UHGV virus genome: UHGV-0204626
Length of the DNA stretch: 39,893 nucleotides
Direction: 5' to 3' (one strand)
Source of the DNA: a virus
The translations under genes and the position numbers were made by a program. Below, in pieces: positions 10,298 to 39,225 of this stretch (position 1 is the stretch's first letter; the number at the start of each line of letters is the position of its first letter). The notes below the pieces were generated by a model. That model was not told the origin of the DNA. It saw only the letters and a program-made list of their open reading frames with translations, and ran no database searches.

Positions 10298-10453
10298 ATG
10301 ACAAAACGTCGTAAGAAATACCAGGAAAAAGAAGAGATTCGACACCCTGATTCACCTGAGGGATTAGTGGTAGCCGCAGCAAATAACAGGGCGTTCGCAG
10401 AGCGCCTTGTTGGTGTTTACAGACTAGCCAAAGCAGGAGTGAAACATGGGCGT
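10298..10453 (+). CDS. Hypothetical small basic protein (51 aa)
   Basis: Manually found ORF with a strong ribosome-binding site (ACAGGAGGAATT-ATG) between cII and O (MTKRRKKYQEKEEIRHPDSPEGLVVAAANNRAFAERLVGVYRLAKAGVKHGRR). Confidence 0.4.
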
Positions 10454-10508
10454 CGTTAAGTTAGCTGATTACAGGCATAACCCTGTACAACATCAGGAGG
10501 CATCCAGT

Positions 10509-11336
10509 ATGGGGTATGTCTCTATACACCGCCAGTTTATGGACAGCAGGCTCTATAAGGACTCTCAGGCAGTACATCTTTGGCTTCACTTAATCCTCAA
10601 GGCTAATCACGAATCTACTGTCGTCAATACGGATATCGGTCCGATAACTGTTGATCGCGGTCAGATGATAACTGGACGCCCGTCGCTGGTCAGAGAAACA
10701 TTCATCCCCGACAACAAAGTTCGGAGCTTATTACGGACTTTTGAGTCGAAAGGGATGCTTAATATTTGCTCGATGGGGAAGAAATTTAGCCTGTTTACAA
10801 TCGTTAAATATGACGATTTTCAGGCAAAAAATTGTCCAACGGTTGTCCAACGGTTGTCCAACGCAAACACCAGTAATGGCGCGGCTCTCAGCGGAGATTG
10901 TCCAACGGTTGTCCAACTGTTGTCCATAAACAATAATATAAATAATATCTCTAATACTGACGTATTAGAGAGTGCCACAGCAGACAAAAAGTCTGACAAG
11001 AAAAAACCTTCCGTTAGCTGTCAGGATGTTGTCGATGCTTACCACGAAATCCTTCCTGAAGCGCCAAGAATCCGCGCACTGAATGACAAGCGTAAAAACC
11101 AGATCCGAACGTTCTGGCGCAAAGCCGGAGTGATAACCCGCCAGCTTGACGGGCATGGGTTCACGATGCAGGACTGGAGAAATTATTTGAGCTACGTAGG
11201 CGAAAATTGCCGATGGATGTTCGAAGAACGCCCAAACCATCAACGCGGAACCGTCTGGCACAAAAAGGGATTTGATTTCCTGCTTAACGACAATACCTAC
11301 CTGAAAGTTCGTGAGGGTGAACACGATGACCGATAA
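10509..11336 (+). CDS. O: Replication initiator O (P22 gene 18 equivalent)
   Basis: ORF containing the origin iterons and AT-rich region inside its coding sequence, as in lambda O. Start placed at the Met preceded by CAGGAGG; an alternative upstream start exists at 10446. Confidence 0.8.
   Translation: MGYVSIHRQFMDSRLYKDSQAVHLWLHLILKANHESTVVNTDIGPITVDRGQMITGRPSLVRETFIPDNKVRSLLRTFESKGMLNICSMGKKFSLFTIVKYDDFQAKNCPTVVQRLSNANTSNGAALSGDCPTVVQLLSINNNINNISNTDVLESATADKKSDKKKPSVSCQDVVDAYHEILPEAPRIRALNDKRKNQIRTFWRKAGVITRQLDGHGFTMQDWRNYLSYVGENCRWMFEERPNHQRGTVWHKKGFDFLLNDNTYLKVREGEHDDR
10832..10965. repeat. Origin of replication: six 11-bp iterons plus AT-rich region
   Basis: TTGTCCAACGG repeated three times in tandem (10832-10864) and three more near-copies (about 10898-10930), followed by AT-rich DNA (AAACAATAATATAAATAATATCTCTAATA). 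Confidence 0.8.
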
Positions 11337-33819: not shown

Positions 33820-34026
33820 CTATCTGTCAACTAAAGGACAATTGCTAATCCCCATGATCCCATTATCCGAGTACCAATAATTTCTGGAGAATTTTCCAGA
33901 AGCGCTTAGGTATTTACATTCAATCTTGTTACCGTCAGTTATTGATGAATATTTAACCCCATAACCAGTAAATGCAGACAAAACAAGTAAAAAGATTGCA
34001 AATAACCCAATAGTAAATTTTTTCAT
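33820..34026 (-). CDS. Hypothetical small secreted protein (signal peptide)
   Basis: 68-aa ORF with a classical N-terminal signal peptide (MKKFTIGLFAIFLLVLSAFTG); AT-rich gene. Confidence 0.5.
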   Translation of the reverse strand: MKKFTIGLFAIFLLVLSAFTGYGVKYSSITDGNKIECKYLSASGKFSRNYWYSDNGIMGISNCPLVDR

Positions 34027-34643: not shown

Positions 34644-35225
34644 CTATCTAAACGTTGCACACGACTCATCTATCCATTTTTCATAAAATTGTATACCGAG
34701 ATAGGCAAGAACAGATGGATGTATATCAACAAGCTTTTCGCCAAGATGTTCTGTTGGAGGTGGATAATCTTTGCCTTGGTTTCTTACGGTTATAGGCATA
34801 GTTGTTGCTGGATGAAACTCAACTATCATAGGGTCGCCTTCGTATTTTGCTATTTTCCCTGTTGAATCAATGATTAACTCTTTAATATAATGGCTTCTTG
34901 CTCCCGGAAATGCCCCAAGAGTAGTATAAGGAGGTTCAAGTTTTGAGATTTCCATAGTGGAATGATGATCAGCATTTCTTGCTTGGTGAAGGTAAGCAAG
35001 TGTTTTGTCTGTTTTTCTAAGCATGAACTTTTGGTTGAAGTGGCTGCTAAATTTTCCACTAACCGGCTTTGTTGCACAGAGCAACTTACTGAAAGACTTT
35101 TCTATATGCCCAAGACATTCTCGCCAGTGCATCTCAAAATCATCATGGTTTGTAGATGATTTCATCTGCTCTAGGCACTTTTTAGCTGCGATGATTTCTT
35201 TTTTTGCTGGGTTGTAATCGATCAT
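34644..35225 (-). CDS. Hypothetical protein (193 aa) co-transcribed with mnt
   Basis: Start ATG overlaps the mnt stop (ATGA), so translational coupling is likely; no signal peptide; AT-rich; I do not recognise the protein. Confidence 0.65.
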   Translation of the reverse strand: MIDYNPAKKEIIAAKKCLEQMKSSTNHDDFEMHWRECLGHIEKSFSKLLCATKPVSGKFSSHFNQKFMLRKTDKTLAYLHQARNADHHSTMEISKLEPPYTTLGAFPGARSHYIKELIIDSTGKIAKYEGDPMIVEFHPATTMPITVRNQGKDYPPPTEHLGEKLVDIHPSVLAYLGIQFYEKWIDESCATFR

Positions 35226-35470
35226 TTTGCATCCTTGCCATACATGGTTTTCAGCGTCTCAAGCAGCGCCTCTTTGAATTTATCAGCTTCTTGGTTAGCG
35301 AATCCTTCAAGTGAGCGAGAGCCATCAAGATTATCAACATGTTTTTGAAGGATAAGCACAATCTCTGAGTTCATTGATCTGCCGTTTTTATCCGCTTCTT
35401 GCTGAATGCGTTTCTTTAAATAGTCTGGAATCCTAATCCCCAATGGACTGATATCTCTTGCACCTTTCAT
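35222..35470 (-). CDS. mnt: Mnt-like ribbon-helix-helix repressor
   Basis: Internal Met start preceded by AGGAGGAGA; N-terminal RHH motif (...PLGIRIPDYLKKRIQQEADKNGRSMNSEIVLILQKH...) close to the P22 Mnt/Arc motif; divergent from the arc-ant pair. Confidence 0.75.
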   Translation of the reverse strand: MKGARDISPLGIRIPDYLKKRIQQEADKNGRSMNSEIVLILQKHVDNLDGSRSLEGFANQEADKFKEALLETLKTMYGKDAK

Positions 35471-35495
35471 TTCTCCTCCTGCACGCTGTGCGTAG

Positions 35496-35565
35496 CTACA
35501 CAGTGTAGGCAAAAAATTTTTGACTTTAAATAAACACGGTGTAGTATTTAGTTATCACGGTGTAG
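35496..35565. promoter_or_regulatory. immI-like operator/promoter region
   Basis: Perfect 13-bp palindrome CTACACAGTGTAG (35496-35508); candidate -35 TTGACT (35520-35525) and -10 TAGTAT (35542-35547); two direct repeats CACGGTGTAG (35535-35544, 35556-35565) that share the GTGTAG half-site. Confidence 0.55.
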
Positions 35566-35579
35566 CAAGTGAGGTGGAA

Positions 35580-35720
35580 ATGAAAGTTAGAGACATCGCT
35601 CCATTAGGGATTCGTATCCCGCCAGAGATTAAAGAAAAATTGAAGGAAAAGGCTAAGGAGGAGGGCAGGTCTTTAAATTCAGAAATAGTGCAGCGTCTTA
35701 TTCGCAGCCTAAAAAGTTGA
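35580..35720 (+). CDS. arc: Arc-like ribbon-helix-helix repressor
   Basis: 46-aa product from the internal Met (MKVRDIAPLGIRIPPEIKEKLKEKAKEEGRSLNSEIVQRLIRSLKS), preceded by GAGGTGG; RHH motif GRS.NSEI. Confidence 0.75.
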   Translation: MKVRDIAPLGIRIPPEIKEKLKEKAKEEGRSLNSEIVQRLIRSLKS

Positions 35721-35783
35721 AGCCCCAACTGCTGGAACAGTCAGGGCTTCGGTATCGTAAAACCACGCATAGGAATTAACGAC

Positions 35784-36707
35784 ATGAAAAGTATAGCAAC
35801 AGCAGTATCTACTATCAATGTACCATTCCACGGCGCAGAGCTTTATGTTGTCAATCACAACGGCGAACCGTATACCCCAATGAAACCTATCGTTGAGGGA
35901 ATGGGTATGGATTGGGCTTCACAGTTTACAAAGTTAAAACAAAGATTTGCTAAAGGTATTGTGGAAATCGCAATACCTTCAGTTGGCGGTGTGCAGACCA
36001 TGATTTGCCTTGCTTTACGTAAACTGAATGGCTGGTTGCAAACCATCAGCCCTAACAAAGTCCGCCCTGAAATCCGCGACAATGTAATCCAGTATCAAGA
36101 AGAGTGTGACGATGTGCTATACGAGTACTGGACTAAAGGCCATGTAGTTAACCCACGCAAAGCTAAAAAGGCGTTGCCTGGTAAAATCACTACTGAACAG
36201 CAGGAAGCCATTAAACAACTCGTCATGAGTCGCGGTCAGTCTCTGCCAAAAGAAAAACAGGCTAAGGCGATGATCACCATGTGGTCGTCACTGAAATCCC
36301 ATTTTGGATGTTCGTACAAAGAAATCAGTGAGGAGCAGTTTACCGAAGCACTGTCACTTGCAGCTCGAGTTCCGCTTGAAGGTGAGTTCATCGGCAAACA
36401 AGAGAAGAAAACCAACGAGCTTTCTGCAAAAGAAGCAAACAGCCTTGTATGGTTATGGGATTATGCCAACCGCTCACAGGCATTATTCCGCGAACTGTAT
36501 CCGGCGCTAAAACAAATTCAATCGAACTATTCCGGCAGATGTCATGACTGCGGTTATGAGTTCTCCCGTATTATCGATATAGCGAGAGATGTTTTAATCA
36601 ATCACACACGAGATGTTGATATCAATGAGCCAGACGGACCAACGAATCTTTCCGCATGGATGAGACTTAAGAATAAAGAATTACCTCCTTCAGTTCATAA
36701 CTACTGA
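35784..36707 (+). CDS. ant: Antirepressor Ant
   Basis: 307-aa ORF downstream of arc, in P22 immI arrangement and the P22 Ant size range; Cys/His motif near the C-terminus (CHDCGYEF). Confidence 0.8.
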   Translation: MKSIATAVSTINVPFHGAELYVVNHNGEPYTPMKPIVEGMGMDWASQFTKLKQRFAKGIVEIAIPSVGGVQTMICLALRKLNGWLQTISPNKVRPEIRDNVIQYQEECDDVLYEYWTKGHVVNPRKAKKALPGKITTEQQEAIKQLVMSRGQSLPKEKQAKAMITMWSSLKSHFGCSYKEISEEQFTEALSLAARVPLEGEFIGKQEKKTNELSAKEANSLVWLWDYANRSQALFRELYPALKQIQSNYSGRCHDCGYEFSRIIDIARDVLINHTRDVDINEPDGPTNLSAWMRLKNKELPPSVHNY

Positions 36708-36807: not shown

Positions 36808-39225
36808 ATGACAGACATTACAGCCAATGTGATCGTATCAATGCCTTCGCAACTCTTCACTATGGCGCGTTCTTTTAAAGCAGTAGCCAATGGCAAAATT
36901 TATATCGGTAAAATTGACACTGACCCGGTAAATCCTGATAACCAGATTCAGGTCTATGTTGAGAACGAAGATGGTTCTCACGTTCCTGTTGCACAGCCAA
37001 TCGTCATCAATGCCGCTGGGTATCCAGTATATAACGGACAGATTGCCAAATTCGTAACTGTGCAAGGCCATTCTATGGCTGTTTATGATGCGTATGGTGC
37101 GCAGCAGTTCTATTTTCCTAATGTGCTGAAGTATGACCCTGATCAGTTACGTCAGCAATTAGAAGACCCATATGGTGCGGAAAAATACCCTGAATTACAA
37201 ATAGCCAGATGGATAGATGATGGAGATGTAAGGGGGTGGGGGTTAAAACCAGGCTATTATTTTGATAATAGTTCTGTATGGGAAAATCTGTTAAATTCTG
37301 GACGCAAAGATTTTGTTGTGCCTTCTGGTGTTTTCAGATTTTCTAACGGAATTGATATACCAGGAGACTTTAGATTTATAGGGCAGGGCTCTCCTATTCT
37401 TGGTTTTGGCACAGATGATGATAAGCATTTTTTGTCTGAAGGAATTAAGCAAAACATGCCGGGTTCATCATTTATATTTTCTGGAAAAGGGACAAAAGAA
37501 GCCACGGCGTACAATCGCAATGACCAATTTTCAAGCGTAAGGTATTGTGTGCGAGTTATGTCACCAGAGTATGGTTCTAGTGGAGCCGTATTACGTGGTA
37601 TTGCAATAATTCAGGACATGGTCTGCTTTGATGGTGATGGTATTCCAACAACCCCTAATAATGATATGCGTTCAGATTATGAGTGTGGTGTTTATTACGA
37701 CGACTCTGCAAGAAATCTTCAGGAGGATGTTTGTGTATTCGGATACTTTTCAAAAGCAGGTACAATAATTCAGTCAAAGCAAGGAAACGATGACCCTGAT
37801 TACAATACCATTACTGGTGGGTCAACTATGGGGAGAGTCGGTTTAGCAATTCTTGGTTCAAACACTGGGCCTGCAAGTTATGGTCTCAGCGGAACTAGAG
37901 TAGATAAATGTGGTATTTATACCCTTGATCACCACAGTCGTGCATCAATGTCTCATGAAGGGCTTGTTTCTTATTACTCTAGCGCAAACACATGGCGATG
38001 CCTTTATATAGATGGTGATGTTAATGCGACATCCGCTGAAATAAATGGGCATTACTTTTATGGCTGTGAGTTTAGAACCAGAGCTAATCATGCATTAGAA
38101 TTTGATCACGCATCCAACATCCAGTTTTATGGTGGCGTGGTAGAGCAATCCCCTTATGGTATTACAAATTCAGATATTCCGACTTTTATTGGTTCTGAGA
38201 ATGTAAAGAGAGGCGTTGGTTTTTATGGCGTGCGCATGAATTATATTTCTCAGATATTTAATGACAATTTTGCTGGAGTGATTCCTGTAAAAATAATAGT
38301 TTCAGGCGATCCGCTAAACGGTAGATTTGGAGTTGTAGGTAAAGACCCAGCAGGCGGTTATACCGTTGCAATTCTTGGCTCTGATGGGAATATTGGTGAC
38401 GCATCAATTCAGTTTACGAAGAATGCTGCTGATGGGTCTACAGGATGGAAAGTGATGATGGATGCAAGCTCCGACAGACTATTGGTCAGCAAGGATGGAG
38501 AAACCATGACGTCACTCACTGAGACAGGAATGTACACTGTATCGGCTCCATCTGGTTCTGATGCTATGCTTGGCCTGCTCAGTAATGGCAACGCTACATC
38601 TTGGTTCATGAGAACACAATACAACAGTGTAGGTCAATTACAGTTCAGACATGGTGGGTCTGGAGCTACTCCAGCAATGCAAATAGCAACATCAGGGGGA
38701 ATCACTCCTGGAGCTGATGCCACTTCAAATATAGGTAGCGCATCACTACGATATAACATTGGTTATTTTGCCGGAGGAACCCAGTCAAGCTCTGATGCAA
38801 GACTTAAGGATCCGATAAGAGAAATGACAGATTCTGAAAAGTCAGCAGCTAAAGAAATAGGAGAAATGATTGGGTTTTGGACATGGATTGATGATGACTC
38901 AAAGCGTTTGCATGCAGGAATAACAGTTCAATCAGTTATATCTGTATTAGAAAAACATGGATTAAATTGGAAGAATTATTCATTTATAGGTTTTGATGAA
39001 TGGGATGACATATATGATGATGTAGTTAAAGACATCGAAGTTGAAGATGCGAATGGTAATAAAAAAATAATATCGGTTAATTCTGGAGAGAAAAGGCTTG
39101 TAAAAAAAGCAGGGAATCTTTTTCAATTTAGAGACCAAGAATTAGACAGATTTATAATGAGAGGGTTATCAGAAAGGATATCTGATATTGAAGATTTATT
39201 GATTAAAAAAGTTATTAAACAATAA
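36808..39225 (+). CDS. Tailspike protein (P22 gp9-type head-binding domain, divergent receptor-binding domain, C-terminal chaperone-like domain)
   Basis: 805-aa ORF; the first ~110 aa ([43 protein letters not shown]...[13 protein letters not shown]...NVLKYDPDQ) match the P22 tailspike head-binding domain; the central region is Gly-rich (beta-helix-like); the C-terminal ~145 aa begin with [10 protein letters not shown]. Confidence 0.9.

Follow-up and report, generated by a model that had tools for sequence, protein, structure and literature searches.

How does an immunity switch work when its two repressors carry the same DNA-reading segment? The question is raised by a locus in the viral genome UHGV-0204626, a stretch of 39,893 nucleotides (the window, to whose numbering all coordinates refer), in which an mnt-like and an arc-like gene, both encoding small ribbon-helix-helix (RHH) proteins, diverge from a gap of 109 base pairs (bp; 35471-35579). 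An initial annotation had described the gap as an immunity-I (immI) control region in which related RHH proteins read a shared GTGTAG half-site in different geometries, inverted and direct. Comparing the locus with its relatives, we consider it very probable that three sites in the gap, O1 to O3, are operators of the adjacent RHH repressors. With moderate confidence we further read the gap as a P22-type immI control region that has three operators of the type of P22 Omnt and in which both repressors would work through one specificity. The genes and sites concerned are as follows.

35222-35470, minus strand: mnt-like gene, an open reading frame (ORF) for an 82-residue RHH repressor, with its ATG at 35470 and a Shine-Dalgarno sequence, AGGAGG, at 35475-35480.
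35580-35720, plus strand: arc-like gene for a 46-residue RHH protein, with its ATG at 35580 and a Shine-Dalgarno sequence, GAGGTGG, at 35571-35577.
35496-35508, centre 35502, no strand: putative operator O1, CTACAC-A-GTGTAG (CTACACAGTGTAG), a perfect 13-bp palindrome of Omnt type with two consensus half-sites.
35532-35544, centre 35538, no strand: putative operator O2, AAACAC-G-GTGTAG, with two mismatches, all in the left outer triplet.
35553-35565, centre 35559, no strand: putative operator O3, TATCAC-G-GTGTAG, with three mismatches in the left outer triplet.
35479-35491, no strand: O0, CTGCAC-G-CTGTGC, a possible weak fourth site over the mnt leader, with four mismatches to the consensus and of low confidence.

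The palindrome and the two 10-bp repeats that the initial annotation had placed between the divergent genes are all present. O1 begins 25 bp from the mnt ATG, and the repeats are copies of the 10-mer CACGGTGTAG at 35535-35544 and 35556-35565, 21 bp apart from start to start. Perfect palindromes of the 6+1+6 form occur at chance level (10 in the window, 9.8 +/- 3.2 in shuffles), so that the O1 palindrome alone carries no weight. The clustering of related sequences is another matter: six copies of CACGGTGTAG with at most one mismatch occur in the window against 1.04 expected, a number that none of 100 shuffles reached, and four of the six lie in this gap. Likewise, four of the window's 16 copies of GTGTAG fall inside 64 bp, for which uniform placement gives a P of about 2e-5, and no other non-homopolymer hexamer of the window has four copies packed so closely. 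No further copy of the O1 13-mer was found elsewhere in the window at up to two mismatches.

Two other interpretations of the palindrome were rejected. A larger palindrome, GCGTAG|CTACAC, centred at 35495/35496 and extending O1 leftward, has a left part that is not conserved in the related loci L001, L011 and L029. An RNA hairpin or terminator cannot form from a 6-bp stem with a 1-nucleotide loop, and no T run follows it.

We collected related loci from phage genomes, E. coli prophages, species genomes (four loci), IMG/VR and contigs encoding Arc-like homologues. They represent 11 lineages: Escherichia phages in a podovirus and a siphovirus context, Salmonella, Tatumella, Pluralibacter, two of Serratia, two metagenomic contigs, Photorhabdus, and Paraburkholderia, whose locus has different neighbouring genes. 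All 11 have three sites that fit CTACA(C/T)-N-(G/A)TGTAG, with the centres of O1 and O2 separated by 36 bp in every one and those of O2 and O3 by 21 bp in nine. O1 is a perfect palindrome in 9/11. Pooling the arms (n = 66) gave G61 T66 G66 T56 A46 G42, and the centre base varies among lineages (A, G or C). Within the window's own immI type (group A), O1 is invariant in all 12 distinct intergenic variants while the DNA immediately to its left is scrambled; in these 12 sequences 9 of 39 columns inside the sites vary, compared with 38 of 72 outside (Fisher p = 0.003). The candidate O0, which lies 16-18 bp to the left of O1, is missing in several lineages, and better copies occupy the same relative place in L001 (CTGCAC-G-CTGTAG, two mismatches) and L098 (CTACAC-T-GTGATT, three), with a four-mismatch copy in L101.

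These alignments bear on the geometry of the sites. The inverted and direct orientations described earlier would imply that the Mnt-like protein binds the inverted O1 and the Arc-like protein binds GTGTAG direct repeats two helical turns apart, a proposal that we regard as unlikely. The window's 10-mers are indeed exact, same-sense and 21 bp apart, the spacing is widely kept, and in L029 and L101 the centre G has become C in both copies. Yet each CACGGTGTAG opens with a CAC that mirrors the GTG one base on, giving the CAC-N-GTG core by which both "direct repeats" can be understood as degenerate copies of the O1 palindrome. This CAC is found at both repeats in every lineage, the centre base is free, and the Photorhabdus O2 and O3 match a palindrome at 12 of 13 positions (TTACAC-G-GTGTAG and CAACAC-G-GTGTAG). 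The same-sense relation itself is lost where the left arm of O3 equals or beats the right, as in L100 (Serratia, CAACAC-A-GTGATG), L102 and L104, all of which retain the position and spacing.

A parallel for direct repeats does exist in group D, an unrelated immI type represented by L067 and its relatives in IMG/VR (Mnt head PQVNLRLP, Arc head VKTLRMP). There the same place holds two direct copies of a different 9-mer, ATGCGTACC, spaced by exactly 21 bp and lying on either side of the -10 element of the arc-ant promoter (Pant), so the two-turn layout recurs with an unrelated sequence. Some RHH proteins are also known to use direct as well as inverted boxes (ParG, PMC3413123). In the window type, however, both proteins have the same head, described below, and no geometry can be assigned to one of them. 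Given the CAC cores, the near-palindromes of Photorhabdus, the flipping arm of O3 and the free centre, we favour three copies of an inverted-repeat operator, with the same-sense appearance of O2 and O3 as a probable lineage-specific accident of arm decay.

The three sites overlap two candidate promoters.

35520-35547, plus strand: candidate arc-ant promoter (Pant analogue), with the -35 element TTGACT at 35520-35525, a 16-bp spacer and the -10 element TAGTAT at 35542-35547; nine of 12 matches.
35502-35530, minus strand: putative mnt promoter, with the -35 element TTTAAA at 35530-35525, a 17-bp spacer and the -10 element TACACT at 35507-35502, inside O1; eight of 12 matches.

The candidate Pant was the best match toward arc in a sigma-70-like promoter scan and the mnt promoter came from a relaxed scan of the bottom strand. 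As the initial annotation had it, the first repeat lies on the candidate arc-ant -10 element and the second on the expected start. The TAG of the right arm of O2 is the first half of this -10 element, and O3 lies over the expected Pant start site, where P22 has Omnt. Candidate Pant, which is preceded by an A6T5 tract, keeps its intergenic coordinate across immI groups A, B and C and matches the P22 Pant hexamers annotated in X01916. On the bottom strand, TACACT is kept in groups A, B and C despite their differing operator half-sites. A bottom-strand mnt promoter that overlaps Pant fully, as in P22, was sought and discarded for want of an acceptable hexamer pair, the best being TTTAAA-17-TACACT.

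Which protein could read these sites? Pfam Arc (PF03869; cut-off 20.4 bits) matches both the Mnt-like (32.8 bits, E 6e-8) and the Arc-like protein (49.1 bits, E 5e-13). The Mnt-like protein also matches phrog_2685 (E 1e-30, residues 1-81), and its residues 4-74 align by HMMER to residues 1-75 of PDB entry 1mnt (E 5e-5), an alignment that includes the C-terminal domain. The Arc-like protein is a mosaic of resemblances: its PDB matches are pArc (E 6e-10, residues 10-45) and Mnt (E 1.5e-5, residues 4-40), its residues 4-14 align to Mnt R2-P12, and its helices match Arc best, although it lacks the last seven residues of P22 Arc. We note separately that the PHROG families phrog_2685 and phrog_795, along with many RefSeq phage records (NC_004348, NC_011976), label Mnt-family repressors as "partition protein ATPase", which for an 82-residue RHH protein is almost certainly a propagated mis-annotation.

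The N-terminal segments of the two proteins are strikingly alike. The Mnt-like protein starts MKGARDISPLGIRIPDYLKK with the head A4-R-D-I-S-P-L-G-I-R-I-P15, and the Arc-like protein starts MKVRDIAPLGIRIPPEIKEK with the head R4-D-I-A-P-L-G-I-R-I-P14, so that the recognition strand (S/A)PLGIRIP, or P-x-G-x-R, is common to both. P-x-G-x-R is present in both divergent RHH proteins in 11/11 lineages. Ten of 11 head residues are identical between the two, and five of these ten differ in codon (for example Arg AGG versus CGT); the genes overall have 56% nucleotide identity. The differing codons and this low identity suggest that the shared head has been kept by selection and does not stem from recent gene conversion. 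With the same P-L-G-I-R strand, in which Pro, Gly and Arg would face the DNA, and a similar R-D-I arm, both repressors most likely read GTGTAG, which supports the earlier proposal that related RHH proteins recognize a shared half-site.

In Knight and Sauer's work, the DNA-contact residues of Mnt are reported to be Arg2, His6, Asn8 and Arg10. At the equivalent positions both window proteins keep the two arginines and replace His6 with Pro and Asn8 with Gly, changes that are consistent with an altered outer half-site. A His6-to-Pro mutant of Mnt with altered operator specificity has reportedly been described. Two loci provide side observations on the reader and its sites. In a Paraburkholderia sp. 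locus (L095, DASXHA010000114.1), the half-site has A and not G as its innermost base (ATGTAG), and the N-terminal R-D-I arm is without its Arg in both proteins, reading A-H-I in one and N-Q-I in the other. This hints, in a single lineage, that the arm Arg reads the innermost G. In L018 (IMGVR_UViG_2675903606_000016) the module has decayed, and promoter, operator and reader are all mutated together: the Pant -35 element is TCGACT, the right arm of O2 is GTATAG and the recognition Arg of the Arc-like protein is changed to His.

Among seven immI types compared, the shared head is unique to the window type; in the six others (P22, L066, the Kapi1 group and groups B, C and D) the heads of the two proteins differ. 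For five types we could set the Mnt head beside the half-site.

P22: Mnt head H-F-N-F-R, half-site GTGGACC.
L066: Mnt head Q-F-K-L-R, half-site GTGGTTC.
Kapi1 group: Mnt head Q-I-N-I-R, half-site GTTATACC.
Phage 611R6 (group C): Mnt head P-Y-S-V-R, half-site GTGATA.
Window type (group A): Mnt head P-L-G-I-R, half-site GTGTAG.

The sites of 611R6, of the TATCAC-N-GTGATA type, lie at intergenic coordinates 26-38 and 62-74, which are those of O1 and O2. Across immI types, site sequence thus appears to track the Mnt head. A simple code in which a conserved Arg specifies a conserved GTG core was considered and dropped, as the Arg persists in group B and the Kapi1 group, where the cores are TTG and GTT.

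This comparison weighs on two further explanations. The first is that O1-O3 have no operator function and arose by chance, or as a by-product of promoter elements (the TAG of TAGTAT, and AGTGTA as the complement of a -10 hexamer) combined with a small local duplication. Some 10 palindromes of 13 bp are expected in 40 kb, and parts of O1 and O2 do coincide with candidate -10 hexamers; we nevertheless give this explanation almost no credence, in view of the clustering statistics, the conservation of the footprints, the change of site sequence with repressor head in sister modules, and the recurrence of the 36/21-bp triplet in Photorhabdus and Paraburkholderia with unrelated intervening sequence.

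The second is that only the Mnt-like protein uses O1-O3 and the Arc-like protein has another target or mode, for instance an arm-set preference, mixed oligomers or competition. The N-terminal arms do differ, the 46-residue Arc-like protein is without the last seven P22 Arc residues, Pro, Gly and Arg at the DNA leave much of the specificity to other parts, and the six immI types with unlike heads set a precedent for repressors that diverge. What makes this improbable in our view is that an identical head under purifying selection in both proteins, over 11 lineages, would be hard to explain, and that the gap offers the Arc-like protein no second candidate operator: P22 Oarc is absent, and we found in the gap no second family of repeated or palindromic elements fit to be a separate Arc operator.

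We therefore return to three Omnt-type operators read by both repressors, for which we infer the following arrangement. O2 on the -10 element and O3 on the start site, two helical turns apart and on the same face of the DNA, would when occupied exclude RNA polymerase and shut off arc and ant, and either repressor, whichever is present, could use them. O1 lies over the probable mnt -10 element, and its occupancy would limit mnt. The P22 logic, in which Mnt holds ant off in the lysogen and, once infection has occurred, Arc turns mnt off and limits ant, would then be run on a single DNA specificity. The two repressors would be told apart by time of synthesis, by oligomeric state (the Mnt C-terminal domain being present only in the Mnt-like protein) and by graded site quality. 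A perfect O1 beside half-degenerate O2 and O3, met by proteins with and without the Mnt C-terminal domain, could yield graded, protein-specific occupancy.

Several points weigh against this account. The assignment of the mnt promoter is weak, with eight of 12 matches, and fails in the Paraburkholderia locus. The right arm of O2 and the right half of O1 overlap -10 hexamers, which partly confounds their perfect conservation. The distances from O1 to O2 (36 bp) and to O3 (57 bp) are non-integral numbers of helical turns, which leaves cooperation between O1 and O2/O3 unexplained, and the O2-O3 spacing is 22 bp in one lineage and 18 bp in another. The N-terminal arms (MKGARDIS and MKVRDIA) differ by one deletion and two substitutions; Pro and Gly facing the DNA make no side-chain hydrogen bonds, so specificity may rest on these arms, and their differences mean that the two proteins could prefer different sites among O1-O3. 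A tetramer on each 13-mer is presumed solely through homology with P22, whose Mnt forms a tetramer that places each of its dimers on a 7-bp half-site, GTGGACC (PMC3176789). For the same reason, one dimer per half-site, we set aside a single RHH dimer on each 13-mer centred on the free base (PMC3176789).

A more specific version of the account is that the Mnt-like protein, with its tetramerisation domain, and the Arc-like protein, a bare 46-residue dimer, compete or form mixed assemblies on O1-O3 in a single-specificity RHH switch. We offer this tentatively, as a possibility suggested by the sequences. If true, the outcome at the two promoters would depend on concentration and cooperativity in place of sequence specificity, and a design like the lambda right operator (OR) would have been built from RHH parts and conserved from Enterobacterales to Burkholderiales.

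The surroundings of the gap place it in a complete module.

35784-36707, plus strand: ant antirepressor gene, the regulated output, encoding 307 residues with Pfam P22_AR_N (E 3e-44) and P22_AR_C (E 9e-29).
35715-35782, minus strand: sar antisense RNA, Rfam RF00262, 81.2 bits, E 4e-17, full length (1-68).
35818-35790, minus strand: candidate sar promoter, TTGATA-17-TATACT, from the promoter scan.
35750-35719, minus strand: candidate sar terminator stem of 14 bp, from the terminator scan.
36808-39225, plus strand: tailspike gene downstream of ant, with Head_binding at E 5e-66.

The ant gene follows arc in one operon, starting 63 bp beyond the arc stop, and the sar score is well above the gathering score of 43. 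With two Pfam Arc proteins, the Ant domains, sar and the tailspike, the designation of an immI-type control region holds: mnt-arc-sar-ant is a complete P22-type immunity-I module. sar was also found in 9/9 related immI types tested, some of which have repressor heads quite unlike those here. Taken whole, the window is a CUS-3-like phage of the P22 type, with 95% identity to CUS-3 across the morphogenetic genes, and the module occupies the slot of the P22-like late operon adjoining the tailspike, which has been described as the "ant moron" slot (PMC2629481). In the tailspike, the P22 head-binding domain is joined by Peptidase_S74 (endosialidase chaperone) at the C-terminus, a pair that fits the CUS-3-like kinship and suggests a capsule-degrading spike. 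A 717-residue ORF upstream of the module, a candidate for gene 16, had no Pfam match.

The same mnt-arc-sar-ant module, 94% identical, is present in Escherichia phage PhiR12_1 (L001, PV340549.1, 39120-41132), where it sits within a lambda-like siphovirus tail cluster between the tail assembly genes L and K. Its occurrence in PhiR12 siphoviruses and in the podovirus of the window suggests that the immI module moves as a unit between phage morphotypes. A prophage of E. coli W4 is 99.6% identical. Other genes near the module vary. A 193-residue ORF (34644-35225, minus strand), whose start overlaps the mnt stop codon (ATGA) and which is for that reason probably co-transcribed with mnt from the prophage, has no Pfam match and matches phrog_23516, of unknown function. 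Its slot in sister modules holds a gene for a ClpP-like protease (L002-L004, L100, L103) or other cargo. A 68-residue membrane-like ORF (33820-34026, minus strand), with a YobH-like Pfam match (E 8e-10), lies in the variable cargo region between the 717-residue ORF and mnt. Far from the module, a 296-residue ORF (10446-11336, plus strand) contains six 11-bp iterons, TTGTCCAACGG, at 10833-10921, arranged as two sets of three with an AT-rich stretch after them. These iterons are the second-tightest hexamer cluster of the window, and the array looks like a lambdoid replication origin within an O-like initiator gene.

P22 Arc and Mnt are textbook models of how a beta-sheet reads DNA and of how short N-terminal segments set specificity. 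Against this background, the window module may serve as a natural counterpart of engineered Arc/Mnt hybrids, comprising two scaffolds, a common head, three sites in a conserved layout and GTGTAG as the candidate cognate half-site. The module asks how specificity is achieved when two of three groove-facing residues have no hydrogen-bonding side chain, and how two repressors of the same specificity could produce different regulatory outcomes. The pairing of heads with half-sites, whose outer triplets are GAC, GTT, TAG and ATA, provides a start for an RHH recognition code. We also predict that phages with this immI type share antirepressor immunity mutually and not with phages of the P22 type or other types.

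How does the locus compare with known systems? P22 Mnt is a repressor of arc and ant; P22 Arc moderates ant as well as inhibiting mnt (PMC11016777). The window shares with P22 immI the gene order and orientation, the position of sar at the arc-ant junction and a location immediately before the tailspike gene in a P22-like late operon. By position, O3 corresponds to Omnt, in the start region of Pant, and O2 to Oarc, in the spacer and -10 element. In the P22 gap (X01916), Omnt is the one perfect palindrome, AGGTCCAC-G-GTGGACCT, and it directly precedes arc. The initial annotation had judged the window's sites to differ from P22 Oarc and Omnt, and so they do in sequence, in that neither P22 operator occurs in the window at up to three mismatches. 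In design, on the other hand, O1 is plainly of the Omnt type: both are odd-centred inverted repeats with a CAC-N-GTG core, in the register GTGTAG(G) to GTGGACC. They are identical at 8/13 positions, or 10/17 with flanks, and the differences are symmetric and lie in the outer triplet, which is TAG in the window and GAC in P22 Omnt; the window has three graded copies.

The differences from P22 lie in the number of specificities. P22 immI has two repressor specificities and two unrelated operators, Oarc and Omnt, read by two strands, a feature that the window lacks; the window has one head and three operators of one type, perhaps with a weak fourth. A single head with a single site family makes the window module a variant of P22-type immI. 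Its gap is 109 bp long against 90 bp in P22, and only the window has the extra perfect site O1 and the A/T tract upstream of the Pant -35 element. The candidate mnt promoter is back-to-back with Pant in the window, whereas the two overlap fully in P22. P22 Arc sensu stricto has the strand PQFNLRWP and a 21-bp Oarc, while the Arc-like protein of the window has the head APLGIRIP on an Arc-like helical scaffold.

Such a combination has a laboratory parallel. The specificity of Arc and Mnt is said to reside in a short N-terminal region, going by the title of a paper by Knight and Sauer (1989, cited in PMC3413123), which makes an Arc scaffold with an Mnt-type head plausible. Hybrid Arc/Mnt repressors were reportedly engineered by Knight and Sauer (1989) and by Raumann, Knight and Sauer (1995), both cited in PMC3413123. 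To judge from its sequence, the Arc-like protein of the window is in effect such a hybrid, a natural Arc scaffold with an Mnt-type head. Unlike those constructs, the window protein occurs in nature, is conserved in several genera and comes with a cognate Mnt-like repressor and three sites.

The layout also recalls OR1-OR2-OR3 of lambda, between PRM and PR, where three graded palindromes lie between divergent promoters and, as would be expected here, two proteins act on the same sites. This likeness is one of working and not of homology, since the window has RHH in place of helix-turn-helix proteins, spacings of 36 and 21 bp, and control of an antirepressor in place of the primary choice between lysis and lysogeny. 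A full-text literature search for these operator sequences returned unrelated matches only, mostly eukaryotic studies and one DNA-storage method. A review of "ant morons" noted the great variability of the region and did not analyse its operators (PMC2629481). Compared with the classic family, what is new lies in the design: one head for both repressors, three (perhaps four) like operators, and a fixed 36/21-bp layout maintained over two bacterial orders.

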